NCBI RefSeq assembly: GCF_055900595.2 | Contig: NZ_JBVWEU010000003.1 | From: a plasmid | DNA: 64,000 bases | Strand: one strand, 5' to 3' | Shown: positions 2,503 to 47,133 of the stretch, piece by piece | Layout of the letters: each line of letters begins with the position of its first letter | Position numbering within the stretch: the first letter of the stretch is position 1 | Notes under the pieces: model-generated | Told to the model about the DNA's origin: nothing | Database searches by the model: none | The model's input: only the letters and a program-made list of their open reading frames with translations | Position numbers and translations under genes: made by a program

Positions 2503-2631
2503 TCTCTCCGGTTCCCCCTGAGCGGGGGAATTTCACTGGCACTTATTGCGGGGAACAAAACCATCGGACGGGGGAAACATCTGTATTTCTGTGTGTCCTG
2601 GTGTAATACGGTGGATTTGTGTGTGTCTGGA

Positions 2632-2844: not shown

Positions 2845-2878
2845 AAAAAAGCCTGCCCGGAGGGCAGGCATGAAAGAC
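2845..2878 (-). terminator. Rho-independent terminator-like hairpin on minus strand
   Basis: GCCTGCCC-TCCG-GGCAGGC stem followed by a T-run when read on the minus strand. Confidence 0.35.
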
Positions 2879-3844: not shown

Positions 3845-3947
3845 CTCAGCTCCCGGCCGGGCAAGCCCGTCACTCTCCGACCGCCGAACCGCAGGTTGTC
3901 ATTGACTGGCTGGCCAGAAGCTGGGGCTGGTTGCCCGCGCCATGCTG

Positions 3948-4931: not shown

Positions 4932-5053
4932 GATAACTAATATCTGGATTAGTGAAAAAGAGTCATGATTATAATGACTGAATTTGATATTTACAATGGG
5001 GGGAGGGGTAATAAAATCAAATCGCCAGTAATATGATTTCTCTGTAAATAGTA

Positions 5054-5906: not shown

Positions 5907-6438
5907 AAAGAAAATATTCTTAACATCAAACAATCCAGCTAAAGTAGAAGCTGTCAAAATAGTTTGTTCTAAATTATTTGATGTTTTTTCTATCAAGCAT
6001 GAGGATATAGCGTCAGGTGTTAGTGATACTCCATTTACAGATGATGAGGCTATTTTAGGATGTTATACAAGAATTAATTCATCTGAGCATAATTTAAGTG
6101 AGCATGTGGATTACATTATTGCATTAGAAGGATTGATAGAGAAAAAATCATTTGGACAATTTGTTTATGGATGGGCTGTTATAAAGGAAATGGAAAGTTC
6201 GAGTTTTTTTTATGGATGTAGTGGGAAAGTTTATTTGCCAAATCGTGTTATGCAAAAGATGTCTTCCCAGAAAAGATTGTCTGATGTTGTTCTTGAGTTG
6301 TATCCAGGAACAAGTGCTGATGAGTTAAAGTTGATAGGAACGAATGGTGTATTGACCGGTGGACTATATACGAGAGCGATGGAGTTCGAGACAGCTTTAT
6401 TGTGTGCTTTCGGTTCTATGATGACAAGTAAAGTTTAA
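5896..6438 (+). CDS. YjjX-like non-canonical purine NTP phosphatase (inosine/xanthosine triphosphatase family)
   Basis: Aligns along its length with my recollection of E. coli YjjX (NNPAKVEAV; SGVSDTPF; YGWAVIKE; C-terminal GVLTGGLYTRA). Start taken at the internal ATG (MQSKKK). Confidence 0.6.
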   Translation: MQSKKKIFLTSNNPAKVEAVKIVCSKLFDVFSIKHEDIASGVSDTPFTDDEAILGCYTRINSSEHNLSEHVDYIIALEGLIEKKSFGQFVYGWAVIKEMESSSFFYGCSGKVYLPNRVMQKMSSQKRLSDVVLELYPGTSADELKLIGTNGVLTGGLYTRAMEFETALLCAFGSMMTSKV

Positions 6439-6453
6439 AAAAAAGGTGATATT

Positions 6454-7734: not shown

Positions 7735-8339
7735 AAAATGTTGCATTTATTTTTTCAGGGAGAGGTAGTCTCGTTACAACTGTTTTGGATGCTATTAGAG
7801 ATAGTAAGACACAATCCAGATTATCCTTAATGATTACAAATAATGTCGAGTTTGATGAGAAATTTACCCCTAAGGGTGTTGATTTGGTTGTTTTAGACCG
7901 GAATGAGTATGTGAAAAGGAATGATTTTGAGAAAAAGATAATATTTGAGTTGAAAAAAAGAAATATTAGCTTAGTTATTCTTGGAGGTTTTAAATTCATT
8001 TTTTCAGAAAAATATGTTGATCTTTTTGGAAACATTACAATAAATACACATCCATCATTACTTCCTGCTTTTCCTGGAGATAAGGCGCAACAAAGGGCTT
8101 TAGCTAAAGGAGTTATATATACTGGTGCAACAATTCATTTTATAAATGAGCATGTTGATGATGGACCTATTATTGACCAAGAGGTTGTCAGGGTTGAAGA
8201 GGGTATGACGGAGTATGAGCTAAAGGAACAAATTATTGAAGTTGAAAAGATAATGATTTACAGATCTGTTAAGGCATTTCTCGACGGAAGATTATATTTA
8301 AAAAACAATCAGGTTATATATGGGGTTGATGATGTATAA
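7731..8339 (+). CDS. PurN-like formyltransferase (GAR transformylase fold)
   Basis: 202 aa; N-terminal FIFSGRGS, NTHPSLLPAFPG (Asn/His catalytic pair) and DDGPIIDQ (catalytic Asp) match the PurN family; ATGA overlap with the upstream gene. Confidence 0.8.
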   Translation: MKNVAFIFSGRGSLVTTVLDAIRDSKTQSRLSLMITNNVEFDEKFTPKGVDLVVLDRNEYVKRNDFEKKIIFELKKRNISLVILGGFKFIFSEKYVDLFGNITINTHPSLLPAFPGDKAQQRALAKGVIYTGATIHFINEHVDDGPIIDQEVVRVEEGMTEYELKEQIIEVEKIMIYRSVKAFLDGRLYLKNNQVIYGVDDV

Positions 8340-9519
8340 GATCAAAAATGATATACTTGCAGCTAGTTGTGTTGCCAGTATTCTGTTTGTGGCTATTATA
8401 TGTTTAGGATTGTCACTGGCAATATTACCCTTGTTTGTGAATAAAATATTACACTTGTCGCCTTTATTCGTTGGAGGAGTTATCTCTGTTGAGTCGATCT
8501 CTACATTGTTATCAAGAGCATCTTCTGGACGGTATTCAGATAAAAATGGCCCCAAAAAAGGAATGATTGCTGGTCTTACATTGATTGTTTTATCTGGTGT
8601 TCTTGTTTGTATATCTTTTGTTCTTAAAGAGAACGTTATTGCTTCATATATAGTGCTTATTATATCACGTATTATTATGGGGGTTGGTGAGAGTTTGGTT
8701 TTTACATGTAGCGGCACATGGCCTATAGGACTGGTTGGCAGGGAACATGCCGGGAAAATAATGTCATGGGTGGGGATTGCTATGTTCATGGGGCTGGCTT
8801 TAGGAAACTATATTGGTGTCTGGTCATTCTATAAATATAATATTATGGTGTCGGCCATTAGTATTACATTGTTTCCATTATTAGGGTTTATTATTGTCTG
8901 TATTGTCAGAAGTGTTCACTATCATCCCGATGTTATTTCTCCATCAATTGTTTATGGCATAAGAAAAATATGGAGAGCAGGAACAGGTTTTGCTCTCGCA
9001 AATATAGGATATGCATCAATCACCACATTTTTAGTTTTGCTTTTTATCGATAATGACTGGGGGAGATATAGTGCTCTTGGTTTATCTCTTTTTGGTATTG
9101 GGTATGTTACTTCCCGCTTAACAATAGGATGGGCGGCCGATCATGTAGGGTTAAAAACAACAATATTTTCACTTGGTCTTGAAGCTTTAGGATTATTATT
9201 TGTTGGTTTGTCAGTTAATATGTATCTGTCTATGTTTGGGGCTTTCTTAACAGGCTTCGGATTATCAATGGTGTATCCACTGTTGGCATTACCTGCAATT
9301 AAAAACATGCCAGAAGAAAATATTGGATTTGCAATTAGCCTTTATGAATCATGCTTTGATATTGGCATACTCATTTCCGGTTTTTTAGGCGGTCTGATTG
9401 TATCTTGCTTTGGGCTTCAATATATATTTTACTTTTCTTTTATATGTTGTCTGATCGCGATTCCTCTTTCTGTTATGGCATATCAGGTATCATCCACGTT
9501 AAATAAAGAATGCAGATAA
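8320..9519 (+). CDS. MFS transporter (likely efflux)
   Basis: 399 aa, about 12 predicted hydrophobic helices with glycine-rich loops; overlaps the purN-like stop, so probably co-transcribed. Confidence 0.8.
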   Translation: MGLMMYKIKNDILAASCVASILFVAIICLGLSLAILPLFVNKILHLSPLFVGGVISVESISTLLSRASSGRYSDKNGPKKGMIAGLTLIVLSGVLVCISFVLKENVIASYIVLIISRIIMGVGESLVFTCSGTWPIGLVGREHAGKIMSWVGIAMFMGLALGNYIGVWSFYKYNIMVSAISITLFPLLGFIIVCIVRSVHYHPDVISPSIVYGIRKIWRAGTGFALANIGYASITTFLVLLFIDNDWGRYSALGLSLFGIGYVTSRLTIGWAADHVGLKTTIFSLGLEALGLLFVGLSVNMYLSMFGAFLTGFGLSMVYPLLALPAIKNMPEENIGFAISLYESCFDIGILISGFLGGLIVSCFGLQYIFYFSFICCLIAIPLSVMAYQVSSTLNKECR

Positions 9520-9529
9520 ATCGGACAAC

Positions 9530-9793
9530 TTGTATGCTGCCAGGATGTTGAAATACTTCTGCTGTGACTGCCAGCACGGTACATTGTACGAAGGGACTCG
9601 GGGGGATACTGTGATGTTGCATGAGGATTTTCAGGAGCTTGAGCAGCCGGGGCCGGACAATGTGCAGGAATTTGAAGAGAAACGGCGGGATGAACTCAAC
9701 CTGCTCTATGTGGCGGCCACGCGGGCCCGGAAGACGCTTGTTCTGAACAGTGTACTTCGCCAGATTCTGGCAAACAGTCGCTTCACCGGATGA
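9530..9793 (+). pseudogene. C-terminal remnant of a UvrD/Rep-like helicase
   Basis: 87-aa ORF ends with the helicase C-terminal motif LNLLYVAATRARKTLVL; no N-terminal ATPase domain upstream; composition jumps back to GC-rich exactly here. Confidence 0.45.
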
Positions 9794-10054
9794 TTGCCTG
9801 GCCGTGACGAAAACAGCATGATACCGGTACTGGAACCGTGTTTTCAGGGAGTACCGGATATGTGGTTTTTTTCGACAGTTCTGTTTCTGCTCATTGTTAT
9901 CTGTTGCGTGGCTGGCGTTGTGAATGCACTGGCGGTGCAGCGTGAATTACATGCACGCAGGGAGCAGGAATATCATGCCCGGATACGCGCGGAGACAGGT
10001 GAGCGTATCCGGCGGGAATGGTATGAGCAGTGCCGACAGAAAAGAACACAATAA
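9794..10054 (+). CDS. Hypothetical small membrane protein
   Basis: One hydrophobic helix (FFSTVLFLLIVICCVAGVV) followed by a charged tail; no recognisable family. Confidence 0.3.
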   Translation: MPGRDENSMIPVLEPCFQGVPDMWFFSTVLFLLIVICCVAGVVNALAVQRELHARREQEYHARIRAETGERIRREWYEQCRQKRTQ

Positions 10055-10349
10055 ATAAAAACAGCGGTTACGAAGCAAAATGCATCGTGAGAGTACATTC
10101 AGTTATTTTTTGTTATTTTGTTTTTTATAAAACAAAATAACAGGCATGGTTAATGCGAGGTGTTTTATAGAAAAATGCCCTCAGAGGAGATAGTGAGGGC
10201 ATAAAGTAAAAACCGATTCGATGGATAGTCTGTTAATTATAATTTTAAATGGAAATTTTAAAACATGCAGAAACAGGATACAAACCGAAAGATAAAAAAT
10301 GTGATACAGAAAACAGAATATCACTATATCACGGTCAGCATGATGGCTG

Positions 10350-10561
10350 TCATTCTGCTGATGAGCAGTTGCTTAATACAGGTCTGTCATTCCCTTCTAC
10401 CAGATCGGCTTTTTTCCCTTTTGTGTACAGTTTATATGAGTAGTTTTTGTTGATGGCTTCGTAATTCGCTCCGGAGGCCATTTTCATAAGCTGCATGGGT
10501 ATCATCTCATCCATCTGATTTATCACTGCATAGGAGTTTCCGGCAGTGGTGTTGATATAGA
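10350..10561 (-). pseudogene. mliC-like lysozyme inhibitor gene, C-terminal part (displaced by the IS66 insertion)
   Basis: Minus-strand translation from the target duplication gives …YINTTAGNSYAVINQMDEMIPMQLMKMASGANYEAINKNYSYKLYTKGKKADLVEGNDRPVLSNCSSAE*, with the MliC-type SGA.Y motif; in frame with the N-terminal part at 13261-13395. Confidence 0.6.
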
Positions 10562-10591
10562 GTAAGCGGCTCGTCAGAACCGTATTGATAT

Positions 10592-12163
10592 TTACTGAGA
10601 GCTCAGATCAACTTTCCAGGGCAACAGATCGCGTACCCGGTTTGCCGACCAGTCCTGGATATGTTCAATGACGTAACGCAGCCACTTTTCTGGCTCCACA
10701 TTGTTCAGACGGCATGTGCCGATCAGCGAGTACAACACCGCCGCATGTTCACCACCGCTGTCGGAACCCGCGAACATCCAGTTTTTCCGGCCTACGGCCA
10801 CTCCCCGTAAGGCGTTCTCTGCGATGTTGTTGTCGATTTCCACCCAGCCATTACTGCAGTACACGTTCAGTGCATCCCACTGTTTCAGCAGGTATGCGAA
10901 CGCTTTTGCCGTATCTGAGTGACGCGACAGTGTTTTCATCTGAGTCTGTATCCAGTCGTACAGTGACTGCATCAGTGGCGCAGCTCTGGCTTTTCTTGCC
11001 GCCAGACGCTGTTCTGCTGAACATCCCCGGACCTCTGCCTCGATTGCATACAGTTCACCGATACGCTGCAGGGCTTCCGTGGTGATATCGGTAGGCGCTC
11101 TTGCATGCACATCGTGGATTTTTCTCCGGGCATGGGCCATACACGCGGCTTCCGTTATTCTGCCGGATTCGTATAACGCCCGGTAACCACCGTAAGCATC
11201 GGCCTGAAGCACACCGCTGTAACCGGCCAGGTGATTCTGTGGATGGATACCTTTCCGGTCCGGGCTGTACGCGAACCAGACCGCCGGGGGCATCTGTGAA
11301 CCGGTGTTACGGTCATCACGGACGTAAACCCACAGCCGGGCAGTTCTTGTTTTACCACTGCCCGGCTCCTGGACCGGAACGGGGATATCATCCGCATGGA
11401 CTTTACCGGGCATCAGCACATACTGGCGCAGCACGTCATACAGCGGCTCCAGCAGTTCAGCAACGGCACTGGTCCAGCGCCCCAGCGTGGCGCGGCTCAG
11501 TTCCACGCCCTGACGACGGTATATTTCTGACTGGCGGTATAACGGCAGATGGTCTGCATACTTCCCGGTGACGATATGAGCCAGAAGCCCCGCTCCGGCA
11601 TAACTGCGTGCAATGGGTTTTGAAGGTACTGGTGCCTGCACGATATGGTCGCACCGGCAACAGGCCAGTTTCGGACGTTGTGTTTCGATAACCTTAAAGG
11701 CGCTGCTGATAAGCTCCAGTTGCTCTGACACATCACATCCCAGAGAACTGAGTTCGCCACCACAAGCCGGGCAGCATTCCTCTTCCGGCCGGATAACCCG
11801 GGATTCACGGGGAAGTGCAGCCGGTAACGGTTTACGGGCTGAAGACTGGCGCAGGGAAGATGGCAGTGCCGGGTCATATTGCTCACCCAGTGTTTCCGCC
11901 ATTTCTTCCTGAAGTGCGCTGATTCGCTCCTGTGCTTCCTGTATCTGTCGTTCGGTTTTTGCGCGAAGTTTTTCTGAGCTTTTACCGAACTGCATGCGCT
12001 GCAGTTTTGCAACCAGCGCCTTCAGCCGGTTGATTTCAGAAGCATAAGCCGCCACCCGCTGTGAGAGCAGGCAATTGTATTCGGCCATCTGGCGGATGGT
12101 GTCCTGTTGCGCCTGCAACAGTGCCCGCAGGCGGGCGTTCTCATGAGCAAGTGAGGTGTCCAT
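10592..12163 (-). CDS. tnpC: IS66-family transposase TnpC
   Basis: 523 aa with an N-terminal coiled coil, a Cys cluster (CPACGG…CCRCDH) and a DDE-type core characteristic of IS66 TnpC. Confidence 0.9.
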
Positions 12164-12182
12164 ATCCTCACTTTACAACGGG

Positions 12183-12530
12183 TTATATGCGGATTCCAGC
12201 GCGTTCCGTTCGTTTTGGATGTTTCCAGTCGATGCCCTCAAGAAGCATGGATAACTGGGCCGGAGTAAGGTGCACCTTGCCGTCACGGGTGACCGGCCAG
12301 ACGAAGCGGCCCCGCTCCAGGCGTTTGGTGAAGAGGCACAGTCCGTCGCTGTCAGCCCACAACACTTTTATCTGGTCACCCCGGCGTCCGCGGAAGATGA
12401 ACAGGTGTCCGGAGAACGGGTCATTCTTCAGGACGTTCTGAACTTTTGAGGCCAGGCCGTTAAAGCCATTTCGCATGTCGGTGATACCGGCAACCAGCCA
12501 GATACGCGAACCTGCAGGGAGAGATATCAT
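12183..12530 (-). CDS. tnpB: IS66 Orf2 (TnpB)
   Basis: 115 aa with the conserved IS66 Orf2 signature (WLVAGITDMRNGFNGLA…GHLFIFRGRRGDQIKVLWAD). Confidence 0.9.
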   Translation of the reverse strand: MISLPAGSRIWLVAGITDMRNGFNGLASKVQNVLKNDPFSGHLFIFRGRRGDQIKVLWADSDGLCLFTKRLERGRFVWPVTRDGKVHLTPAQLSMLLEGIDWKHPKRTERAGIRI

Positions 12531-13207
12531 CAGTGGCTGCTCCCTTTCATTTCGCGGATAAGTGTCTGTAATAAGGCCGGTGTCAGTTCACCTTTCAGCC
12601 TGAGAGTTCCGGCCGGCAGAACCAGCTCACAGCACAGACTGTCGGACGGTGTATTTATCTGCTCTGGTTCCTGTGCCGGAGCCGGGATTTTATTATCCGG
12701 CTCCGGCGTTAACGTCACGGGAAGCAGTGCAGGCATATTTTTTCCGGAAGGCAGCAGGCCACCTTTCCGGTATTGATGGCGCCAGTTGAAGAGCAGGTTA
12801 TCGTTGATTCCGTTTTCACGGGCGATCTGCGCCACACAGGCTCCGGGCTGCAGTGACTGCTCCACTAAGGCGATTTTAAACTCATAAGGAAAATTAGGCC
12901 GCCGGGGACGTTTTTTTACCACCGGGACTTCGGACATAACGGTGTTTTCAGTAAGTACGACAGGTACTGTGGAGGCACTCCCGTAAAGACGGGCATCAAG
13001 TTCCCGCTCCGACATACCTGCGGGAAGAGGCCATGAAAGGCCAGCTTTGCGGAAGCGCACGAACATACCACAAACTGTTGATTTTGGTACGCCCAGGCGA
13101 CGTCCGGCCACAATCCGTGGTAAATGTTCTTCAAAGTGAAGACGTAAAGCTTCGGTGATCCAGGTCCGGTATTCCATACGATAGTGTCCATTAAAAATGA
13201 TGGACAT
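12530..13207 (-). CDS. tnpA: IS66 Orf1 (TnpA-like) with N-terminal HTH
   Basis: 225 aa; sits first in the three-gene IS66 arrangement and overlaps Orf2 by one base. Confidence 0.7.
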   Translation of the reverse strand: MSIIFNGHYRMEYRTWITEALRLHFEEHLPRIVAGRRLGVPKSTVCGMFVRFRKAGLSWPLPAGMSERELDARLYGSASTVPVVLTENTVMSEVPVVKKRPRRPNFPYEFKIALVEQSLQPGACVAQIARENGINDNLLFNWRHQYRKGGLLPSGKNMPALLPVTLTPEPDNKIPAPAQEPEQINTPSDSLCCELVLPAGTLRLKGELTPALLQTLIREMKGSSH

Positions 13208-13395
13208 TATTTTTGTGGAGCCGGAGGAAACAGACCAGACGGTTCAGATGAGGCGCTTACGATATAGACAACCTCCATTGTCTTGTTTCCATCACAGACA
13301 TAGGCTTTTTTTGAGATTTCTTGTGTGGCAGCGGAGGCTGTCATACAGGAGCAGGCGAGAATGAGTGCAAGGACGGCTGAAGAATATTTTTTCAT
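13207..13395 (-). pseudogene. mliC-like lysozyme inhibitor lipoprotein gene, N-terminal part interrupted by IS66
   Basis: Signal peptide with lipobox (LILACSCMTA) then YVCDGNKTMEVVYI; the original frame leaves at the target duplication and the ORF runs on into IS66 sequence. Confidence 0.6.
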
Positions 13396-13848
13396 AACAA
13401 CTCCTTCTGTAGGTTAAAAAGAGAGGTGCTTTGCCGGAGTTATATTAATAATTCATTCATCAGAGAAAACTTTTTTTTGTTACGGCAATAATAATGAGAC
13501 AATTCCAGGTAAGCCCGGTGCCGTTCTACGGTTGCACCGGGAGGGCTGGAACTCAGTGCGGAGATTTTTTACCATCCTGGTGATATAAATGATCATGTGC
13601 TGTTTTGCGGTCCCTGTATATGCCCATTAGACTGGCCCCCTGAATCTCCAGACAACCAGTATCACTTAAATAAGTGATAGTCTTAATACTAGTTTTTAGA
13701 CTAGTCATTGGAGAATGTAATGAACGCATCCCAACTATTTGAGTATGAAGCCGGGGTTGGCAGGAAAAGTGTGGAGCCTCGCAGATTTCCGGCATCATAG
13801 TGCCCAATACGGGATGCATAAAGCTCCCTCAGACTGGAGACTCCACAA

Positions 13849-14436
13849 ATGAAATATACACCGGTTGGCGTTGATATCGCAAAACATGTCATTCAGGTTC
13901 ACTTCATCAATGAGCACACAGGGGAAGTGGTGGATAAGCAGGTTCGTCGTCAGGATTTTCTGGCGTATTTCAGTAACCGCGAACCCTGCCTGATTGGCAT
14001 GGAAGCTTGTGGAGGCTCCCTGCACTGGGCGCGTGAATTAACAAAGCAGGGACACAAAGTCCGATTGTTGCAGGCTCGCTTCGTTAAAGCATTCGTCATG
14101 GGCAATAAGAATGACGTGATGGATGCGCGAGCTATCTGGATGGCGGTACAGCAGCCAGGCAAAGAAATCGCCGTCAAAACAGAAGAACAACAGTCAATAC
14201 TGGTTCTGCACCGTTCCCGCAGACAACTGGTGAAGTTCCGGACCGCGCAAATTAATGCCCTGCACGGGAGGTTACTGGAGTTTGGTGAAACCATTTCTTT
14301 TTCAGTCTGTATCGCAGAACTGCGTAATAATCTGAAGGAGAACTCTTCCTGGCTGGTTGCTCTCTGTGATTTCATTTTTGCACGTTTCAGGCAGTGCTGT
14401 ATTCGTCTCTGGATACAGATCCGATCATCTTCCTGA
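13849..14436 (+). pseudogene. IS110-family transposase, truncated or frameshifted
   Basis: The first ~150 aa (MKYTPVGVDIAKHVIQVHF…GMEACGGSLHWAREL…) match the IS110-family DEDD N-terminal domain; the ORF stops at 195 aa with a non-conserved tail. Confidence 0.55.
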
Positions 14437-23449: not shown

Positions 23450-23652
23450 TACAGGGGCAGGCGGTGGAGGGCGCCTGTCAGCCCGCGCGAAAACCCCTGG
23501 CAGGCTGGCGCCTGCCGGAAACGCGGGGTGCAGCGCCTGCGGCGCTGCCGGCCCGGCTTTCCGGTCAGAAGGTAGTGTATGGCTGTATGCCAGGAACAGG
23601 TGTGATGTTCCGTGACACTGTCACCGTTTCTGGCTGTTTTTTGTTGCGCCCA

Positions 23653-24150
23653 CTTCGGCTCCCGGCTGCCTGACGGCATCCGGTCGTCAGGCCCGACTCC
23701 GACAGGCAGCTGCTGGCGCACCCGCCAGTCTCCGCCGAACCCGCTGGCGCGGTTTCGGGCTGTCGCTACGGTCCGATGCGTGAAAACCCGGGCTTGCAGC
23801 GACCGTTCCGGTCGCGCCGCCCCTGTCGCGCCGTGACCTGCGCTCCCTGCACACCTGACGGTGTGTGAGGAAACTGCGCCTGATGGCGCAGCAGTCCTCC
23901 CTCCTGCCGCCACCCCTGCGGCCTGTTTCCCGCTGTGGACTTTCCGGGGGGCAGACGTAACCCCCTCCCGTTCCATCTGTCCAGGGTGAGATGCACCGGC
24001 CACAAAATTTTTAGCCATGAACCCGGCAAAAAATTTTGCGTCCGCCCCCGGACAGCTGCCCCGTGAGGCGGTAAACGGGCCCCCATCGGAAAGGTCCACT
24101 GCGGGGAGAAACCCCTGTGAAGTGGACGGCAGGAGGAGCTTTCGCTCCTC
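23653..24150. repeat. Leading-region structured repeat, family B, copy 1 (upstream of ssb; single-strand-promoter-like)
   Basis: About 500 bp shared with 30005-30512 and, in part, 33030-33365; contains hairpins CACACCTGACGGTGTG and CTGCGCCTGATGGCGCAG. Confidence 0.65.
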
Positions 24151-24219
24151 TGAAGGGGCACATGAACGTCCCGTCGCCGGTATCCGGTTTATCTCACATC
24201 TTTCAGTCAGGAGGTTCTT

Positions 24220-24747
24220 ATGAGTGCACGTGGTATCAACAAGGTCATCCTCGTCGGGCGTCTGGGCAATGATCCGGAAGTCCGTTACATCCCCAACGGG
24301 GGTGCAGTGGCAAACCTGCAGGTGGCTACGTCAGAAAGCTGGCGCGACAAACAGACGGGGGAGATGCGGGAGCAGACGGAATGGCACCGCGTGGTGCTGT
24401 TCGGCAAGCTCGCGGAAGTGGCAGGTGAATATCTGCGCAAGGGCGCGCAGGTCTACATCGAGGGGCAACTCCGTACCCGTAGCTGGGAAGATAACGGTAT
24501 CACCCGTTACGTCACTGAAATTCTTGTTAAGACCACGGGCACCATGCAGATGCTGGGGAGTGCACCACAGCAGAACGCTCAGGCGCAACCGAAGCCTCAG
24601 CAGAATGGGCAGCCACAGAGTGCTGACGCGACGAAAAAAGGTGGCGCGAAAACGAAAGGCCGTGGACGTAAGGCCGCGCAGCCCGAGTCTCAGCCGCAAC
24701 CGCCGGAGGGGGAGGATTACGGGTTTTCAGACGATATCCCGTTCTGA
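24220..24747 (+). CDS. ssb: Plasmid single-stranded DNA-binding protein
   Basis: OB-fold N-terminus ([23 protein letters not shown]…), Gln/Pro-rich linker and acidic tail DDIPF. Confidence 0.95.
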
Positions 24748-24765
24748 CTGGCCTGACTGTGATAA

Positions 24766-25038
<273 letters not shown>

Positions 25039-25101
25039 GAGAGGTGCCGGACGGGAACGCGTCCGGCAGACATACAACCATCCCGGTCAAAGGAGAAATA
25101 T

Positions 25102-27060
25102 ATGTCAGTTACAGAGTCTAAGACAAAAACGGAGCGTAAATCCAGCCGTAAACCTGCAAAAACGCAGGAAACAGTCCTGTCTGCCCTGCTGGCGCAGACG
25201 GAGGAAGTGAGCGTGCCGCTGGCCTCACTGATTAAGTCACCGCTGAATGTGCGCACGGTGCCGTATTCTGCGGAGTCCGTCAGTGAACTGGCTGATTCCA
25301 TTAAGGGGGTCGGCCTGCTGCAGAATCTGGTTGTTCATGCCCTGCCAGGTGACCGCCACGGTGTCGCCGCAGGTGGTCGCCGACTGGCTGCACTCAATAT
25401 GCTGGCAGAGCGTGGCATCATTCCGGCGGACTGGCCTGTCCGCGTGAAGGTTATTCCGCAGGAACTGGCGACGGCGGCATCAATGACTGAAAACGGTCAT
25501 CGTCGGGATATGCACCCTGCTGAACAGATTGCCGGATTCCGCGCAATGGCGCAGGAAGGCAAAACACCTGCACAAATCGGTGATTTGCTGGGCTATTCAC
25601 CCCGCCATGTCCAGCGAATGCTGAAACTGGCTGACCTTGCGCCTGTCATCCTCGATGCGCTGGCAGAAGACCTCATCACCACCGAGCACTGTCAGGCGCT
25701 GGCGCTGGAGAACGACACCGCTCGTCAGGTGCAGGTGTTTGAAGCCGCCTGTCAGTCAGGATGGGGCGGTAAACCGGAAGTGCAGACCATTCGTCGTCTG
25801 GTGACCGAAAGTGAAGTGGCGGTGGCGGGGAACAGTAAATTCCGCTTCGTGGGGGCTGATGCCTTCTCGCCAGATGAACTGCGCACCGATTTGTTCAGCG
25901 ATGACGGGGACGGTTATGTCGACCGCGTGGCGCTCGATGCCGCCCTGCTGGAAAAACTCCAGGCTGTCGCTGAACACCTTCGGGAAGCCGAAGGCTGGGA
26001 ATGGTGCGCCGGACGTATGGAGCCTGTCGGTTTCTGCCGTGAGGATGCCGGAACATACCGCAGTCTGCCGGAGCCGGAAGCTGTGCTGACGGAGGCGGAA
26101 GAAGAACGCCTGAACGAACTGATGGCACGTTACGACGCGCTGGAAAATCAGTGTGAGGAATCCGACCTGCTGGAAGCAGAAATGAAGCTGATGCGCTGCA
26201 TGGCGAAGGTCAGGGCGTGGACGCCGGAGATGCGTGCCGGAAGTGGCGTGGTGGTGTCCTGGCGTTATGGAAACGTATGTGTCCAGCGTGGTGTGCAGTT
26301 GCGCAGTGAGGATGACGTGGCTGACGACGCTGGCCGCACGGAACAGGTGCAGGAGAAAGCCTCCGTGGAGGGAATCAGTCTGCCGCTGCTGACGAAAATG
26401 TCTTCCGAACGCACGCTGGCAGTCCAGGCGGCACTGATGCAGCAGCCGGACAAATCCCTGGCACTGCTGGCATGGACGCTCTGCCTGAATGTGTTTGGCA
26501 GCGGAGCGTACAGTAAACCAGCACAAATCAGCCTGGAATGTAAACATTATTCGCTGACCAGCGATGCGCCATCGGGGAAGGAAGGTGCCGCGTTCATGGC
26601 GATGATGGCAGAAAAAGCCCGTCTTGCGGCCCTGTTACCGGGGGGATGGTCACGGGACATGACGACGTTCCTTTCACTCAGTCAGGAGGTGCTGTTATCC
26701 CTGCTCAGTTTCTGCACCGCGTGCAGCATCCACGGCGTTCAGACCCGCGAGTGTGGTCACACGCCACGCAGCCCGCTGGACACGCTGGAGAGCGCCATCG
26801 GTTTTCACATGCGCGACTGGTGGCAGCCGACAAAAGCAAACTTCTTCGGACACCTGAAAAAGCCGCAGATTATCGCAGCCCTGAATGAGGCAGGACTGTC
26901 CGGTGCCGCACGGGACGCGGAGAAGATGAAGAAAGGCGATGCGGCTGAACATGCAGAGTTCCATATGAAAGACAACCGCTGGGTGCCTGGCTGGATGTGT
27001 GCACCACGTCCACAGACGGATACCACTGAACGCACTGATAACCTGGCTGATGCCGCCTGA
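25102..27060 (+). CDS. ParB-like nuclease-domain protein (large leading-region protein)
   Basis: 652 aa; N-terminal ParB/Srx-like motif (LQNLVVHALPGDRHGVAAGGRRLAA) followed by HTH-like segments. Confidence 0.75.
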   Translation: MSVTESKTKTERKSSRKPAKTQETVLSALLAQTEEVSVPLASLIKSPLNVRTVPYSAESVSELADSIKGVGLLQNLVVHALPGDRHGVAAGGRRLAALNMLAERGIIPADWPVRVKVIPQELATAASMTENGHRRDMHPAEQIAGFRAMAQEGKTPAQIGDLLGYSPRHVQRMLKLADLAPVILDALAEDLITTEHCQALALENDTARQVQVFEAACQSGWGGKPEVQTIRRLVTESEVAVAGNSKFRFVGADAFSPDELRTDLFSDDGDGYVDRVALDAALLEKLQAVAEHLREAEGWEWCAGRMEPVGFCREDAGTYRSLPEPEAVLTEAEEERLNELMARYDALENQCEESDLLEAEMKLMRCMAKVRAWTPEMRAGSGVVVSWRYGNVCVQRGVQLRSEDDVADDAGRTEQVQEKASVEGISLPLLTKMSSERTLAVQAALMQQPDKSLALLAWTLCLNVFGSGAYSKPAQISLECKHYSLTSDAPSGKEGAAFMAMMAEKARLAALLPGGWSRDMTTFLSLSQEVLLSLLSFCTACSIHGVQTRECGHTPRSPLDTLESAIGFHMRDWWQPTKANFFGHLKKPQIIAALNEAGLSGAARDAEKMKKGDAAEHAEFHMKDNRWVPGWMCAPRPQTDTTERTDNLADAA

Positions 27061-27114
27061 TGAACAACCACACCGCCCCGCCGGAGACGGGGCGGCAGCA
27101 AGGGAGATACCGTG

Positions 27115-27549
27115 ATGAAAACTGAACTGACCCTGAATGTATTACAGACCATGAGTGCACAGGAATATGAAGATATCCGTGCTGCGGGAAGCGATATGCG
27201 CCGTAATCTCACTCACGAGGTGATGCGTGAAGTGGACGCACCGGCTAACTGGATGATGAATGGCGAGTATGGCAGTGAGTTCGGGGGCTTTTTCCCCGTC
27301 CAGGTTCGTTTCACGCCAGCCCACGAACGTTTCCACCTGGTATTATGTTCGCCGGGAGAAGTCTCTCAGCTCTGGATGCTGGTTCTGGTGAATGGTGGTG
27401 GACAGCCTTTCGCCGTCGTTCAGGTGCAACATATCTTCACGCCTGTCGCGATCAGTCACACGCTGGCGCTCGCCGCGACACTTGATGCGCAGGGATACAG
27501 TGTTAACGACATCATTCATATTTTGATGGCAGAAGGAGGTCAGGCATGA
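27115..27549 (+). CDS. psiB: Plasmid SOS-inhibition protein PsiB
   Basis: [26 protein letters not shown]… matches PsiB; ATG follows the track's GTG by one codon. Confidence 0.9.
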
Positions 27550-28265
27550 GCGCACGTTCACGGGCACTGATCCCCCTCAGCGCAGAACAACAGGCCGCCA
27601 TGCAGGCTGTGGCTGTCACCGAACAACGTCGTCGTCAGGGACGCACACTTTCAGCATGGCCTTATGCCAGCGCTTTCTTTCGCTGCCTGAATGGCAGTCG
27701 CCGGATTTCGCTGACCGATCTCCGCTTTTTTGCTCCTGCGCTGACGAAGGAGGAATTTCATGGCAACCGTCTCCTGTGGCTGGCTGCCGTGGATAAACTG
27801 ATTGAAAGTTTTGGTGAAGTCTGTGTTCTTCCCCTGCCATCCGATGCGGGGCACCGTCTGTTCCCGTCCGTTCCTTTTCGTGAAGGTGAGCGTCGTCGTC
27901 AGAAAACCACGCTGACAGAGCAGAAATACAGCCGCCAGCGGGAACGTGAGGCAGAACGACGGGAACTGGAATACCAGACATGTTTTGCTCAGGCGCAGAT
28001 TGACCTTGCGTTTCATACTCCCTCCACGGTCGGAAGCTGGTTGTCCCGCTGGTCTGGTGTTGTTGAGGAGCATGATCTGGAAACGATTTTCTGGGGGTGG
28101 TGCGGGCGTTTTCCGTCACTGTCATCATTTGACCGTTTTTTCTGGCAGGAGGAACCACTCTGGCGGCTGATTTTTGAAGCCGGTGAGGCCGGTCGTGGTG
28201 CACCGGTACAGGTACGTGCACTTGAGCAGTGGATGATCCCGAACAAGCTGGAGAACGTAATATGA
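27546..28265 (+). CDS. psiA: Plasmid SOS-inhibition protein PsiA
   Basis: 239 aa immediately after psiB with a 4-bp overlap; the canonical psiB-psiA pair. Confidence 0.85.
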
Positions 28266-28858
28266 TGAAATCAGACGAAAAATACCAGGTTCCCGCGTGG
28301 ATGCGACCTCTGTTGCCGTTGCTCTGCAACACCGGGGAGAACGATCCGGAAGAACTGCTGAATGATACAGAAACCACTGCCAGTGCGAATGTTGTCCGTT
28401 ATGTACTGATAGTTGCAGTGCGGTCGCAGGTTGATCTGCTGCAGCTTCTGTACAGGAAAGGGCTGTTGCGCACAGAGATACCAGGTGGCTTTTCACCGGA
28501 AGAAGCGCAGGAACTCCTGGATAATCTGGTGCGCAGCCATATCAGCAGGGCGCTGTCGGGTGAGCGAATGGCAGCCCGTGACAGGAATGCCGATCTGGCC
28601 TGGATTCGACAGCAACTGGTCGATGCCGCCTGGTTTGTCCGTGCCACACTGGAAGCGCATGGGATGAGCGTCGGAAATGAGAGTCCCCCTGCTCAGCCGG
28701 AGACAATGCCGGACATACAGACACGGGAACTGGTGATGTTGATCAAGCGACTGGCATCATCGCTGAAAGCGGTGAAACCGGACAGTTGTGTGGTGCGTGA
28801 AGCGCAGGACTGGCTGCGCGACAGAAAACTTGTGAGCATCACGGATGTTCTTCGGTGA
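28262..28858 (+). CDS. Hypothetical protein (leading region)
   Basis: ORF starting at the ATG (MMKSDEKYQ…) that overlaps the psiA stop. Confidence 0.4.
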   Translation: MMKSDEKYQVPAWMRPLLPLLCNTGENDPEELLNDTETTASANVVRYVLIVAVRSQVDLLQLLYRKGLLRTEIPGGFSPEEAQELLDNLVRSHISRALSGERMAARDRNADLAWIRQQLVDAAWFVRATLEAHGMSVGNESPPAQPETMPDIQTRELVMLIKRLASSLKAVKPDSCVVREAQDWLRDRKLVSITDVLR

Positions 28859-40499: not shown

Positions 40500-41604
40500 T
40501 GTGATTATCCTCGGTATCTGTGGCTTTCAGGAACAGGCTGACGGTAGTGGCGTCTTTCAGGATGCCGGACGGCAGGTGCCAGCCGGTATCGGATAACACC
40601 CATGGGGTACCGCCAAAACCGAACTGGCGGAAAGCCTGGTTATTGACATCGATGGCAGCACGAGCAGCGGTCAGACACTTTTCATCCGGTGCAGCCGGTG
40701 CATCGACGGTGGGTGCCATACCACCGTCTGCGGAATACAGCTGATGCCATCCGGTCGCCCGTTTTTGTGCGTCCGGTTCACACAGCAGTGGCGCAGTCCG
40801 GTTTGTGCTGGCCTCTCCGCCGATTACGGAGACCGGATAAATCACCACGCTGAATTCCCGGGCCAGTTGCTTAAGCGCGGGCTCCAGAAGACGGCAGTTG
40901 ATGCATGCGGGGTCAAGGAAGGCGTAGAGTGTGCGTTCATGACCAGTGGAGAGATTAATGGTGAACATACCCCGGTCCGCGTTGCGTTTAAGTACTGTGG
41001 ACAGATTACGGCGGGCCTCAGCGGCCTGAACGTGTTGTTCTTCCGTCACTGCCGTCGGGGCGGGGGCAGAAGAAGGTTCCTGCTGTGTGGGAGCCGGGCG
41101 GGCCGGGATGCTGTTAACATGATGTTCCGTATGTGGGCGTGGTGTCTCTGTGTCGGTTACTGGTTCAGCTCTCCATTCCTGAGATGTAGGGTAAGCCAGC
41201 GTGGAAGGGGGCTCTGCCTTCATCCAGTGGTAACCTGCAACTGTCGCCGGCAGAGCAATTCCGGCGATAAAGCCACACATCAGTGTCCGCCAGAAGCCAT
41301 ATTTCCGGGAGGGATGTTTTCCTTTTCCGGCATATTCGGCATCCAGGCAGGCATCAATCGCTGAGAGCATTCTGCCGATGTGATGTCCGGGACGTTCTGC
41401 ATCAACGGTATCAACAAGCACCGTTTCGGTTATTTCGCGAAAAGGGGAACTGAAGGACAGGTGCATCAGCCTGTTATTACGGTTAATCAGTGCGCCCAGT
41501 TCTGTTACCGGCAGGATGGCAATCACCTCCCGATTACCGTCAGGGTACAGGGCGGTCAGGGACAGGTGTTTATTATTCAGTGTTGCAGTGTAGTGGATGG
41601 TCAT
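40480..41604 (-). CDS. trbB: TrbB-like thiol-disulfide isomerase (DsbC-like)
   Basis: 374 aa with a thioredoxin-type CxxC (DPACINC) in the C-terminal half. Confidence 0.7.
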   Translation of the reverse strand: MTIHYTATLNNKHLSLTALYPDGNREVIAILPVTELGALINRNNRLMHLSFSSPFREITETVLVDTVDAERPGHHIGRMLSAIDACLDAEYAGKGKHPSRKYGFWRTLMCGFIAGIALPATVAGYHWMKAEPPSTLAYPTSQEWRAEPVTDTETPRPHTEHHVNSIPARPAPTQQEPSSAPAPTAVTEEQHVQAAEARRNLSTVLKRNADRGMFTINLSTGHERTLYAFLDPACINCRLLEPALKQLAREFSVVIYPVSVIGGEASTNRTAPLLCEPDAQKRATGWHQLYSADGGMAPTVDAPAAPDEKCLTAARAAIDVNNQAFRQFGFGGTPWVLSDTGWHLPSGILKDATTVSLFLKATDTEDNHNEPASR

Positions 41605-42962
41605 TGTTCTTTTTCCTTGTCGGCGGGATCCTGTTTTTCGGTGGTTTCGGTGGTTTCGGTGGTTTCGGTGGTTTCGGTGGTTTCGGTGGTTTCGGTGGTT
41701 TCGGTGGTTTCGGTGGTTTCGGTGGTTTCGGTGGTTTCGGTGGTTTCACCAGTGTCAGTGTCTTCGTCGTTATCATGGCGGCGGGGTATCACGTCATCCG
41801 TGAGTGACCAGCGGGTCCTGATCTGACGTTTACGATCGCGATCTGGCTGAGGTTCGTCCCATATCAGGCCCAGCCCCAGCATGTCCCGTCGAAGCCCTTC
41901 AATGGCCTCTTCCACACAGGGTTCCGGGCAGGGGAGGCCGAGACGGCTGGCTTCATTTTCTGCCCGGGCAACGGCCACCACGCCGGCCCCTTCGATGAAG
42001 CCTTTTGTGGTGTTTGCCCGGTGAAGGGCATAGAAGAGCGTCCGGTCAACGCCCTTGAGCCACAGCCAGTTCGGAGGCGTCAGGCGCAAATCATGTGCGT
42101 AAAGCCAGACCAGACCGCTGCGAACGTAACGGTGCTGCCTGAGCCACTTTTGTGCGCCTTCTGTTTTGATGACCCGGATAAAGGCGTTTCTGGCCAGTGA
42201 ATACACCGGCGTGCTGAAACGCCCCTGGTCCCGTTTACTTTTGAGCCTGCAGGAGAGATTGAGGTTGTTCATCAGGGCTACCGCTGCTTTCCGGTCACCG
42301 AGGAAGAACTGCAGGCCAAAGATGGCAAAGAGCGCTTTTTCATGTGGGGCCATGTCTTTCCAGCTGGTCAGTGGTTGCCCCAGTTGCGCCATGAAGCACT
42401 GGCGTGTGGACGCAACATCGAGCTGCATGTTGCGGATAAGGTTGTTCTGCTCCACAAAGGCTTCGGGGGTTAGTGCGACACGGCGCTCGGGACGTTTTTG
42501 TCCGTGGAAGAGTCTGTTGTTGTCTCCATCAGCCAGAACGGGGGCGATCGCCGGTGACAGAGCTGAAAAAATATGGGGCAGTGTGTGGATATTCAGTGGC
42601 CTGCGGGTAAAACGGGGCTGGGCCGGATGGTGAAACCACATCCACAGAAAGCCGAATGTCATGGGAAGCAGAATCAACCAGAGGATCCCCACTGTCCGGG
42701 ACATAACATCCAGCCACTGGCTGAAAGTGATGGTTGCCGCGTTGTTAGCAGTGATGGCCAGCAGGTTGTAACGGGGGGCGGCAAAGTTGTGAAAGGGCCC
42801 CCAGTCAATCATGCCCCACAGTGTGTGCAGGATCAGGCAGGAGGCGAAGACGATTTCAGGTAAAAAGCGCCAGATGATAATCGCAAAGAGCAGGCATATG
42901 GCACCGACGATATACCATATAGCCATTGGATCTTCGGCGGCAGACGTCTGTTGGTAAGACAC
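41601..42962 (-). CDS. trbA: TrbA-like membrane protein with C-terminal (ETT)n repeat
   Basis: 453 aa; multiple transmembrane helices; the C-terminus is encoded by tandem 9-bp repeats. Confidence 0.7.
   Translation of the reverse strand: MSYQQTSAAEDPMAIWYIVGAICLLFAIIIWRFLPEIVFASCLILHTLWGMIDWGPFHNFAAPRYNLLAITANNAATITFSQWLDVMSRTVGILWLILLPMTFGFLWMWFHHPAQPRFTRRPLNIHTLPHIFSALSPAIAPVLADGDNNRLFHGQKRPERRVALTPEAFVEQNNLIRNMQLDVASTRQCFMAQLGQPLTSWKDMAPHEKALFAIFGLQFFLGDRKAAVALMNNLNLSCRLKSKRDQGRFSTPVYSLARNAFIRVIKTEGAQKWLRQHRYVRSGLVWLYAHDLRLTPPNWLWLKGVDRTLFYALHRANTTKGFIEGAGVVAVARAENEASRLGLPCPEPCVEEAIEGLRRDMLGLGLIWDEPQPDRDRKRQIRTRWSLTDDVIPRRHDNDEDTDTGETTETTETTETTETTETTETTETTETTETTETTETTEKQDPADKEKEQ
41637..41755. 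repeat. Tandem 9-bp repeat GGTGGTTTC, about 13 copies (in-frame, encodes Glu-Thr-Thr repeats at the TrbA C-terminus)
   Basis: Direct read of the sequence; on the coding strand GAA-ACC-ACC. Confidence 0.9.
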
Positions 42963-44111: not shown

Positions 44112-44208
44112 GAAAAACAGGCGGCGTTTATATTACGGAATAATATCGTTAAGTTGAGTTTATGTTTCCGGTAATGTAATGCTTCACGCAGAGGGTAATG
44201 ACTCCAAC

Positions 44209-44712
44209 TTACTGATAGTGTTTTATGTTCAGATAATGCCCGATGACCTTGTCATGCAGCTCCACCGATTTTGAGAACGACAGTGACTTCCGTCCCAGCC
44301 TTGCCAGATGTTGTCTCAGATTCAGGTTATGTCGCTCAATGCGCTGAGTGTAACGCTTGCTGATAACGTGCAGCTTTCCCTTCAGGCGTGATTCATACAG
44401 CGGCCAGCCATCCGTCATCTATACCACGACCTCAAAGGCCGACAGCAGGCTCAGAAGACGCTCCAGTGTGGCCAGAGTGCGTTCACCGAAGACGTGCGCC
44501 ACAACCGTCCTCCGTATCCTGTCATACGCGTAAAACAGCCAGCGCTGACGTGATTTAGCACCGACGTAGCCCCACTGTTCGTCCATTTCAGCGCAGACAA
44601 TCACATCACTGCCCGGTTGTATGCGCGAGGTTACCGACTGCGGCCTGAGTTTTTTAAGTGACGTAAAACCGTGTTGAGGCCAACGTCCATAATGCGTGCA
44701 CTGGCGCGACAT
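44209..44712 (-). pseudogene. insB: IS1 insB' split by an in-frame TAG where canonical IS1 has TGG (…FEVVV*MTDGW…)
   Basis: Two consecutive same-frame ORFs (97 + 69 aa) separated by a stop at the position of the conserved Trp codon. Confidence 0.7.
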
Positions 44713-44906
44713 CCGACGCCATTCATGGCCATATCAATGATTTTCTGGTGCTTACCGGGCTGAGAGGCGGTGTAAGTGAACTGTAGTTGCCATGTTTTAC
44801 GGCAATGAGAGCAGAGATAGCGCTGATGTCCGGCAGTGCTTTTGCCGTTACGCACCACGCCTTCAGTAGCGGAGCAGGAAGGACATCTGATGGAAATGGA
44901 AGCCAC
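44631..44906 (-). CDS. insA: IS1 InsA
   Basis: [43 protein letters not shown]… is the IS1 InsA sequence. Confidence 0.9.
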
Positions 44907-44967
44907 GCAAGCACCTTAAAATCACCATCATACACTAAATCAGTAAGTTGGCAGCATTACCTTTCAT

Positions 44968-47133
44968 TTATTGTTTTATTCCGTCTTTATCATCTCCATT
45001 AATATTTTTCAGTTTTTCTTCACGAACGCCAGGTGTTCTGCGCATATTGGTATTACCTCCGGCAATAATATCTTTGACTGAAGAAACCATATTCCCCAGC
45101 ATATTAACGCCGTCACGTCCGCCCAGAAAATTAATTACATGGTCAGGCAGATAAGCCTGAAGTGCAAAAACGGCGGCAACCAGCGTGGTACAGACGCGGG
45201 CATAAATCATCAAAAATCCTGCCATGCTGAACACGCCCGTCACAGAATTTATCTGGACATTCATCAGCGCGGCGGCAAACAGCGCATTCAGGATTGTGCC
45301 GCCGGCCACGATGGCGACCGATGCAAAAAAGAACCCGAATACCATCAGCAGCGGTCTGATCATGCTGTCTATCAGGTAGATGTAACCGTAAGCGGCCCGG
45401 CTTCCCCGGTCCTGGCTTGTTCCCAGATGGGTGGCCGCCCAGAGGGGGCCAGCAGCACATCCAATCAGTACGCTAACTATCCAGTTACCAATGCCGGTCA
45501 TCCAGAAGATAAACGGAATAAACGGCAGGTAAATGGATAACGAAAAGCCGGCACAGAACAGCAAAAACAGCAGGAAGTAGAGCGGTGGAGCGGCTGCTTC
45601 CAGAAAAGCCTTTGCGGCGTCAGATAATCCGCTGACGGCATTGACCAGTCGACCAAAAACGGAGTTGCTGCCGGCCGTGGAAAGTACCCTGACGGTGGTA
45701 TAACCCGCCCAGATGGTTTCGGTTGTAACCATGGTGTAATCGCCAATGTTTTTCATTTTTATCAACGGATTTAGTTGATTAGTTGTGGTACCTGTACCGC
45801 TCAGATAAGTGGCTGTCCAGTTAGTCATTCTTGTTAGGTTAAACCCAATCAATTTTAAGATTGCTGATTGAGGGTCTTGAGTTTTAGATGCGTGGTATTC
45901 ACTGGCAGAGGTGGCGGTTCCCAGTGCAGGAGTATACGCTGAGTTCTGCAACTGTGCCTGGTAAGCTCCTCTGACTTCCTTCAGGAACTCCGTATCCCCG
46001 GCTTCGCCCAGTGACGAGACGCCACTCACAGTAGGAGCGCGGTTGGCCAGGTCTTCCAGTCGCTGGTTGGCGGTGGCAAAGGTCTGGTACCAGGCACCCA
46101 GGGCAACCCAGCCGTAGGTGGTCAGGTAGGATTTCAACTGCTCCCTGCGCTCAGTTTCTGCGTTATCTGCCGGCAACGCCTTCTGCACCGTTTCTTCATA
46201 CCGGTTGGCTGCCTTCTGAATACGGCTTTCAATATCCGGCAGGTTGCCGTTACCCGTGTCGCGTCGGGTCCGGTACGCTGACACAAATTCCTGTGCTGCG
46301 CTGTCCAGGTCACGGAGCATGGTATCCATGGCGGAGCGTTGTGCCGTCAGGACTCCCTGATACTCCGTTTCAATGAAGGGATTGAAAAAATGGGCCAGCG
46401 CGGACTGGTTGTTGCTGCCATTCCCTTTCACGGTGAGACTCACACTCCCGCAGGTGGCACTGCCATTTGAAACGGTGACGGTATACCTGCCGTTCTCTGT
46501 CCGTGAGGATTCGCTCATGGGCGGCGTTGATGAACGTGCGGTACGGTTAAAGTCATCGAGGCCCGTATTCATGGCGTGTTTGCACAGCGCCATCTCCAGA
46601 ATTCCCCGTGCTGCCGTGCGGGTGGAGACATGTACTGGCTGTACGGTCATTGAATAGCCTTCAGCGATGTTTTCTGCAGCAGTCTGAACCATGATATTGG
46701 CGGAACCGATGCCCATGATGGATGCGCCCCAGAGCATGACCAGTTGTGCCAGGCTCCAGCCGGAAGCGGTGGGCACAATCATCATAAAACCGCTCACAAT
46801 ACTGAGCATTCCGACGACGTCCCGTCCGTTGTTAAAGACATTGCCCTGGTGGCCGGTGCGGACAGCATGGCGGATTCCAATAAACAGGAACCAGACTATC
46901 CCCATAATGGCGATAATTGCGTTAAACACCATGAACAGGTTGCCGATAATGGTGTTGCTGCTGGCTGTCAGGGGATTTGTGACCACATCACCAAAAATGG
47001 TGACCAGTGCCTGGCGCGACAGGTCATCCGGATTGGTGGCGGCGCTCACAATGTCCTGATAGGTGACGAATGCCTGTGCAGGTACGGCAGCCAGCGCCAG
47101 ACCCGCACTCAGTGCTCTGGGTATGATTTTCAC
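44968..47133 (-). CDS. traY: TraY-like polytopic inner-membrane transfer protein
   Basis: 721 aa with many transmembrane segments; position before traX/W/U matches the I-type tra order. Confidence 0.65.
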   Translation of the reverse strand: MKIIPRALSAGLALAAVPAQAFVTYQDIVSAATNPDDLSRQALVTIFGDVVTNPLTASSNTIIGNLFMVFNAIIAIMGIVWFLFIGIRHAVRTGHQGNVFNNGRDVVGMLSIVSGFMMIVPTASGWSLAQLVMLWGASIMGIGSANIMVQTAAENIAEGYSMTVQPVHVSTRTAARGILEMALCKHAMNTGLDDFNRTARSSTPPMSESSRTENGRYTVTVSNGSATCGSVSLTVKGNGSNNQSALAHFFNPFIETEYQGVLTAQRSAMDTMLRDLDSAAQEFVSAYRTRRDTGNGNLPDIESRIQKAANRYEETVQKALPADNAETERREQLKSYLTTYGWVALGAWYQTFATANQRLEDLANRAPTVSGVSSLGEAGDTEFLKEVRGAYQAQLQNSAYTPALGTATSASEYHASKTQDPQSAILKLIGFNLTRMTNWTATYLSGTGTTTNQLNPLIKMKNIGDYTMVTTETIWAGYTTVRVLSTAGSNSVFGRLVNAVSGLSDAAKAFLEAAAPPLYFLLFLLFCAGFSLSIYLPFIPFIFWMTGIGNWIVSVLIGCAAGPLWAATHLGTSQDRGSRAAYGYIYLIDSMIRPLLMVFGFFFASVAIVAGGTILNALFAAALMNVQINSVTGVFSMAGFLMIYARVCTTLVAAVFALQAYLPDHVINFLGGRDGVNMLGNMVSSVKDIIAGGNTNMRRTPGVREEKLKNINGDDKDGIKQ

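Follow-up and report, generated by a model that had tools for sequence, protein, structure and literature searches.

The nuc-traY interval of the plasmid described here is occupied by a single copy of IS1 that lacks a target duplication and carries a nonsense codon in its transposase frame, while an entry exclusion gene beside traY is not apparent. The locus raises the question of how such an element came to occupy this position and what became of the exclusion gene. Comparison of the 64-kb stretch of plasmid DNA that was analyzed (referred to here as the window) with related plasmids leads us to consider it likely that this transposase-dead IS1 marks a deletion at an IS1 end, through which excA and its neighbors were removed from an IncK2/Z-type plasmid. 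Nothing at the locus falls outside known biology, and it represents an ordinary IS1-associated deletion; its value lies in its being a clean natural example, in which a dead IS copy sits at the center of a rearrangement, a sibling plasmid displays an earlier state, and a core-type gene has been lost.

Structure of the IS1 element and its flanks

The features of the element and of the genes which surround it are collected in Table 1. The two inverted repeats of the IS1 are alike at 20 of 23 positions, each has an exact counterpart in an intact copy, and the inverted repeat pattern returned no match in 100 shuffles of the window sequence. Pfam analysis of the InsAB′ fusion, read through its internal stop codon, identified PF03811 (E value of 1e-19), PF12759 (4e-26), and PF03400 (2.5e-74). 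The promoter of IS1 is known to sit within IRL, and the promoter and terminator scan yielded one expected site only, a promoter-like sequence at positions 44954..44927 which overlaps this repeat. The element conforms to IS1 in every structural respect, except that its transposase frame is not open and that it lacks a target duplication.

The flanking 9-mers CACGCAGAG and TTTCATTTA agree at none of their nine bases, so that no target site duplication of 8 to 9 bp is present, and the longest k-mer common to the 20-bp flanks of the element is 4. Both joints fall precisely where the inverted repeats of the IS1 end, and this exactness indicates that the IS1 ends were processed as ends rather than having been generated through random breakage. 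The DNA at the right joint is 78% A+T over 50 bp. Local recombination with a second IS1 of the window was considered as a cause of the missing duplication and was rejected, as only one IS1 copy is present within the 64 kb.

On the left, 82 bp separate the start codon of nuc from the IRR terminus of the element; on the right, traY is of the same length as in related plasmids, with which it shares 98.8 to 99.4% DNA identity. Elsewhere in this segment, the 3′ end of trbA contains a perfect 9-bp tandem repeat, TTTCGGTGG (positions 41636..41747; 12.4 copies, 100% matches), which encodes a (Thr-Thr-Glu)n tail. As trbA spans 1,362 nt in the window and 1,263 nt in pPK8275-82kb, pEGY2, and pLS45-2, the number of repeats differs between plasmids.

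Table 1. Features of the nuc-traY locus and its surroundings (positions refer to the window)
Feature	Position	Strand	Remarks
trbA	41601..42962	-	DotM_C domain match
Conserved hypothetical ORF between nuc and trbA, 58 aa	43293..43469	-	No exclusion gene homology
nuc (thermonuclease/SNase family), 163 aa	43620..44111	-	Pfam SNase, E value of 1e-22
Left (nuc-side) flanking 9-mer, CACGCAGAG	44185..44193		Junction common to pEGY2, base for base
Complete IS1, IS1F-like allele, transposase-defective	44194..44961	-	768 bp; sequence comparison
IRR (insB′-distal end), GGTAATGACTCCAACTTACTGAT	44194..44216	+	
Untranslated remainder of insB′	44209..44418	-	69 codons plus stop codon; MTDGW and IERHN motifs
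Premature TAG in insB′	44419..44421	-	Canonical TGG, Trp163 of InsAB′; changed base 44420 (IS nucleotide 542)
insA, GTG start, 91 aa	44631..44906	-	Pfam matches Zn_ribbon_InsA and HTH_Tnp_IS1
A6C programmed -1 frameshift motif, TTAAAAAAC	44649..44657	-	Intact
IRL (insA-proximal end), GGTAATGCTGCCAACTTACTGAT	44939..44961	-	Read on minus strand; identical to IRL of intact Klebsiella copy
Right (traY-side) flanking 9-mer, TTTCATTTA	44962..44970		New joint, 6 bp beyond the stop codon of traY
traY (DotA/TraY family), 721 aa	44968..47133	-	Intact

A nonsense codon truncates the transposase

The position of the premature TAG is occupied by TGG in all three of the comparators employed, namely, IS1A of E. 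coli K-12, the second IS1 copy of pEGY2 (IS1b), and the Klebsiella pKC141K copy, which differ from the window IS1 at 70, 32, and 3 of 768 positions, respectively, the last of these representing the nearest intact copy. Relative to this nearest copy, InsA additionally carries two missense changes, T52K (position 44752) and G74D (position 44686), the latter being located inside the Pfam match for the InsA helix-turn-helix. The reconstructed InsAB′ fusion ends after 162 of 232 amino acids, with the loss of 70 residues, and thereby retains positions 1 to 61 of the 131-position DDE_Tnp_IS1 profile while positions 62 to 131 are lost. Going by the usual spacing of DDE motifs, the missing portion, which includes the MTDGW and IERHN motifs, would hold the second Asp and the Glu of the catalytic triad. 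The NCBI annotation pipeline (PGAP) describes the identical copy in pEGY2 as a pseudogene with "programmed frameshift; internal stop." As predicted from these changes, the window IS1 is an element with usable ends whose own transposase is not made.

These results bear out the original prediction with regard to the element itself. The IS1 had been placed at exactly the position in Table 1, with both terminal repeats intact and dissimilar 9-mers on either side; its neighbors had been named as traY, nuc, and trbA, which the open reading frames and the SNase and DotM_C domain matches corroborate; and the TAG in place of the canonical TGG had been recognized, along with its probable consequence, i.e., that this copy is unable to transpose on its own, for which the loss of more than half of the catalytic domain profile argues.

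The interval missing from the window contains excA

The window derives from a plasmid which, as judged from its sequence, is IncK2/Z-like (MPF_I, MOBP), and it is collinear with IncK2/Z plasmids across repA, the leading region, the nikAB/oriT side, trbCBA, nuc, traY, and onward. In IS1-free relatives, homology to the window reaches both ends of the IS1 exactly, and the two junction points are separated by 2,717 bp in pPK8275-82kb (NZ_CP080167.1) and by 4,756 bp in pLS45-2 (NZ_CP095450.1). The interval which is absent from the window carries two hok/gef genes, a small ORF encoding HEAT repeats, and excA, to which pLS45-2 adds a helix-turn-helix gene and several small ORFs. Immediately downstream of traY, excA was found in every IS1-free relative examined, and it is present in nearly all close relatives among the matches listed; furthermore, a survey of 50 IncK2 plasmids placed excA among 42 core genes (PMC12987596).

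A tblastn search of the 64-kb window with two ExcA proteins produced a best E value of 0.14, and no second copy of the deleted DNA, whether excA, the HEAT repeat ORF, hok/gef, or any part thereof, was detected in these 64 kb. The window represents 64 kb of a plasmid whose size is probably 85 to 100 kb, and the absence of excA refers to this 64-kb portion only. With the right joint placed 6 bp beyond the stop codon of traY, the deletion takes in all of excA together with its ribosome binding site and the hairpin-forming stretch which separates the two genes, and traY itself is left untouched.

Of the two IS junctions, the left is the older, being common to pEGY2, and the right is novel, having been found in none of the collections searched. 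At the level of sequence, the locus is an IS-associated deletion, in that the gap with respect to the related plasmids starts precisely at an intact terminus of the IS. The suggestion that the element had mediated an adjacent deletion or recombination is thus supported by the relatives, which align to both of its ends and carry 2.7 to 4.8 kb in between, and the proposed absence of an entry exclusion gene beside traY was likewise upheld. Among the checks that had been advised, a comparison of the traY-nuc-trbA interval with plasmids free of IS1 revealed excA-bearing DNA in those plasmids which the window lacks; relatives with the gene content of the window in the absence of IS1 were not encountered, nor was an exc gene found elsewhere in the 64 kb.

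The nuc-traY interval appears in I-complex plasmids as a variable accessory slot and a repeated target of IS1. It contains IS1-catA1-IS1 in pEB1 and an IS1 beside a phosphoethanolamine transferase gene in pJKHS006_1, while in pSTEC1018_1 an IS1 is located between nuc and a small ORF; excA is retained in all three.

pEGY2 carries the same allele at the same junction

Among the records of PLSDB and 5,426 complete E. coli genomes, the nuc-side junction of the window occurs elsewhere only in pEGY2 (NZ_CP023144.1), an IncK2/Z plasmid of E. coli CFSAN061770 from an Egyptian raw-milk cheese; this junction was without a match in metagenome contigs. The IS1 which adjoins it in pEGY2 (IS1a) is identical to that of the window at 768 of 768 positions, and the allele is a rare one, being found at one of the 74,815 IS1 places of the 5,426 E. 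coli genomes and in two records of PLSDB. The order in pEGY2 is nuc, IS1a with the TAG codon, 7,865 bp of cargo, IS1b, 119 bp of backbone, and traY. IS1b has the same orientation as IS1a, is 95.8% identical to it, and is annotated as intact. The cargo encodes an inositol monophosphatase, a frameshifted LacI-type regulator, an MBL-fold hydrolase/RNase Z, an ABC (sugar-type) transporter, and a truncated LysR gene product. The 119 bp match pPK8275-82kb exactly and comprise the first ~38 nt of excA and the excA-traY spacer, after which pEGY2 continues with the sequence that abuts the IS1 in the window. The IS1a-cargo-IS1b segment occupies positions 726..10126 of the pEGY2 locus, and its outer flanks are not duplicated. 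It was considered whether the cargo constitutes a traveling composite transposon, a possibility which was discarded given that no other PLSDB record contains it.

The left junction and the allele are accordingly taken to be common to the window and pEGY2 by descent. As pEGY2 retains 119 bp of native sequence which the window is without, the window represents the more derived state, and the occurrence of the same defective allele at the same junction within a structure containing two IS1 copies implies that the window IS1 is probably the remnant of something larger. The window is best read, on these grounds, as a deletion derivative of a pEGY2-like structure.

Divergence from a simpler common ancestor, in which IS1a alone lay beside nuc, would account for the same data if the window lineage had arisen by a rightward adjacent deletion to traY and the pEGY2 lineage, separately, by gain of the cargo and IS1b. 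The composite has been observed just once, the cargo being unique to pEGY2 in PLSDB, and the same deletion mechanism acting on the native interval of 2.7 to 4.8 kb would yield the same window sequence. Under this scheme, however, pEGY2 would require a separate loss of the same interval from the same left junction, as well as an elaborate acquisition of the cargo, bounded by IS1a and by an IS1b situated inside excA; moreover, no plasmid was found which combines IS1a with an intact interval or which displays the CACGCAGAG duplication (e.g., in the order nuc, IS1a, CACGCAGAG-CATGAATTCC). Such an independent origin is, in our estimation, decidedly unlikely.

The exact right junction of the window had no match in PLSDB, the 5,426 E. 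coli genomes, metagenome contigs, or GTDB genomes. This rarity, and the frequency with which IS1 repeats collapse in short-read assemblies, would suit an assembly artifact, in which the real plasmid possesses two IS1 copies and cargo as in pEGY2 and the repeat was collapsed by the assembler. A collapse of IS1a and IS1b would, however, retain the 119 bp beside traY, which are absent here, and the 32 sites at which these copies differ would be expected to produce a mixed consensus, whereas the window copy is IS1a at every one of them. We consider an artifact of this kind extremely improbable.

The sequences which border the IS1 are identical between the window and pEGY2 for 1,096 bp on the left side and 1,134 bp on the right, while elsewhere the two plasmids differ by up to 5%, in blocks of 95% to 100% identity. 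The overall identities had hinted at a lineage breakpoint at the IS1, with flanks derived from two plasmid types; this was dismissed because the mismatches lie far from the element and because, on either side of it, more than 1 kb agrees with pEGY2 at every base.

Outside this plasmid group, the same IS1 allele (768 of 768 positions) was identified in the IncF-type plasmid pEk140_mcr-10 of Enterobacter roggenkampii (locus coordinates 11001..11768), where its flanks are unrelated, no target duplication is present, and the adjoining gene, for an MBL-fold hydrolase, is truncated. The presence of an identical dead allele in a plasmid of another genus implies that the allele has traveled. In none of the three known contexts of the exact TAG allele, i.e., the window, pEGY2, and pEk140_mcr-10, is it accompanied by a target site duplication.

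Proposed origin of the deletion

The TAG allele, being common to pEGY2 and pEk140_mcr-10, predates the right joint of the window, and the sharing of this defect means that the deletion required either transposase supplied by another copy or homologous recombination. We infer the following order of events. The ancestor would have been pEGY2-like, with nuc, IS1a (TAG), 7.9 kb of cargo, an intact IS1b, 119 bp of backbone, and traY, such that the nuc-traY interval had by then been largely replaced, with only ~38 nt of excA left. Intramolecular transposition would then have linked the IRL of IS1a to the A+T-rich site located 6 bp past the traY stop codon, either through a replicative adjacent deletion performed by both ends of IS1a or through an "inside-out" event involving the IRL of IS1a and the IRR of IS1b, which would generate the same product. 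The cargo, IS1b, and the 119 bp, amounting to 8,752 bp in all, would have been released as a circle without an origin and lost. This scheme would leave behind one IS1, perfect at both ends and devoid of a target duplication, with traY intact and excA gone.

The InsAB′ needed for these steps would have been provided either by IS1b on the same molecule or by chromosomal IS1 copies. Mobilization in trans by the IS1 transposase has been reported both for otherwise immobile copies which possess the two inverted repeats and for DNA flanked by IRL and IRR, although trans action was ~25-fold weaker than cis action in one comparison (PMC12903888). This preference of IS1 transposase for action in cis would make a dead copy a poor substrate, a point which counts against the transposase-made deletion that we favor.

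The absence of a target duplication is conventionally explained by adjacent deletion or by recombination between IS copies (PMC11708052). A simple homologous exchange in which IS1a of a pEGY2-like parent recombined with IS1b was set aside, as it would keep the 119 bp and probably create a hybrid IS1, whereas the window has lost these 119 bp and its element is IS1a throughout. The main rival to a one-step deletion is instead a two-step route, in which a second copy of the same allele inserted in the normal manner at the position 6 bp past the traY stop codon, either in the same plasmid or in a coresident relative, and RecA-dependent recombination subsequently deleted the DNA between the direct repeats. 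Such a route leaves one IS1 with half of each original target site, which is exactly the product observed and cannot be told by its sequence from that of the one-step deletion. It invokes a standard cause of absent duplications (PMC11708052) in a family of plasmids which is visibly mosaic, as the blockwise identity to pEGY2 illustrates, and in an interval which IS1 has struck repeatedly in relatives. It nevertheless demands one extra event, and the defective allele must still have been mobilized in trans. The recombining partner must, in addition, have been the same rare allele, as the window IS1 corresponds to IS1a at every base, even at the site, 8 nt away from the tip of IRL, where IS1b differs, and no record with an IS1 at this position past traY was found in PLSDB, the 5,426 E. 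coli genomes, metagenome contigs, or GTDB genomes. The two-step route is, accordingly, judged to be rather unlikely, and the one-step transposase-made deletion from a pEGY2-like ancestor remains our preferred reading.

An IS copy without a transposase of its own may, thus, still be central to plasmid remodeling, a consideration which is relevant wherever annotation dismisses IS "pseudogenes."

Mosaic and accessory regions

Within the first 3 kb to the right of the IS1, all differences from pEGY2 and pPK8275-82kb are confined to the central portion of traY (positions 46096..46990). Many of them are spaced at multiples of 3, as expected of third-codon positions, and the pattern suggests an exchanged allele tract. 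The central region of traY is reported to set ExcA specificity in R64 (PMC12365149).

On the ssb-parB-psiB-psiA side of the leading region, a tract of 4,864 bp (positions 23647..28510) is 100% identical to pEGY2, with neighboring blocks at 95 to 99%, a mosaic pattern of the type expected from recombination among related plasmids. A further accessory region (positions 3934..14351) is absent in pEGY2 and is shared, at 99.4 to 99.9% identity, with the chicken E. coli plasmid pLS45-2. It encodes a LysR regulator, a thymidylate synthase, an inosine/xanthosine triphosphatase, an amidohydrolase, a formyltransferase, and an MFS transporter and has the appearance of a nucleotide-related metabolic cassette. 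Relative to pLS45-2, it contains a 2.7-kb insertion at ~10562..13260 with three minus-strand ORFs of 225, 115, and 523 aa, whose database matches are annotated as IS66-family tnpA, tnpB, and transposase.

Predicted consequences for entry exclusion

Entry exclusion curbs redundant transfer among cells which already harbor the plasmid. In I-type systems, ExcA of the recipient recognizes TraY of the donor (Sakuma et al. 2013, as cited in PMC12365149). In pOXA-48, whose transfer system is likewise of the MPF_I type, deletion of excA brought the exclusion index down from ~490 to 2, raised the plasmid copy number on agar by about tenfold, and resulted in more transfer from surface-grown donors on solid medium (PMC12365149). 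By analogy, the window plasmid is probably exclusion negative, such that the same or related incoming plasmids would no longer be excluded, unless another exclusion gene is carried by the portion of the plasmid beyond the window, and pEGY2 should likewise display this phenotype.

A natural I-complex plasmid which is traY positive and excA negative offers a test of the worth of exclusion outside the laboratory, and the traits which such a test concerns are copy number, transfer rate, superinfection, and recombination between coresident relatives. It may be speculated that the dead IS1 allele, moved repeatedly by other IS1 copies, stripped exclusion from a natural IncK2/Z lineage and that the loss was kept because it was beneficial. 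Were this so, the window and pEGY2 would represent natural cases of selection for losing a "core" exclusion gene, as opposed to accidental damage; we hold this reading to be quite unlikely.

Comparison with known systems

The element corresponds to classical IS1 in its length of ~768 bp, its imperfect inverted repeats of ~23 bp, its insA/insB′ organization joined via the A6C motif, and the promoter-like site in IRL, and it is 99.6 to 99.7% identical to intact IS1/IS1F copies. Unlike an autonomous IS1, it carries the W163-to-stop change along with the two InsA missense changes. The locus also displays both features of a textbook IS-associated deletion, namely, a single IS at the edge of the missing DNA and the lack of a target duplication. 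In Tn9-type composites, exemplified by the IS1-catA1-IS1 structure of pEB1, IS1 copies bracket cargo in the same interval of related plasmids, whereas the window possesses one IS1 and no cargo and can represent no more than what is left of a composite of this kind. The closest known arrangement is that of pEGY2, in which excA is similarly destroyed, with its first ~38 nt left, but which keeps the cargo, IS1b, and the 119 bp of excA-traY backbone, all three of which the window has lost.

With respect to the ExcA/TraY systems of I-type (MPF_I) plasmids such as R64, R621a, pOXA-48, and the IncK2 group, traY is present and intact here too, while excA is absent from the window. The system is, in this respect, reduced to its donor-side partner and may be compared with the engineered excA deletion of pOXA-48.
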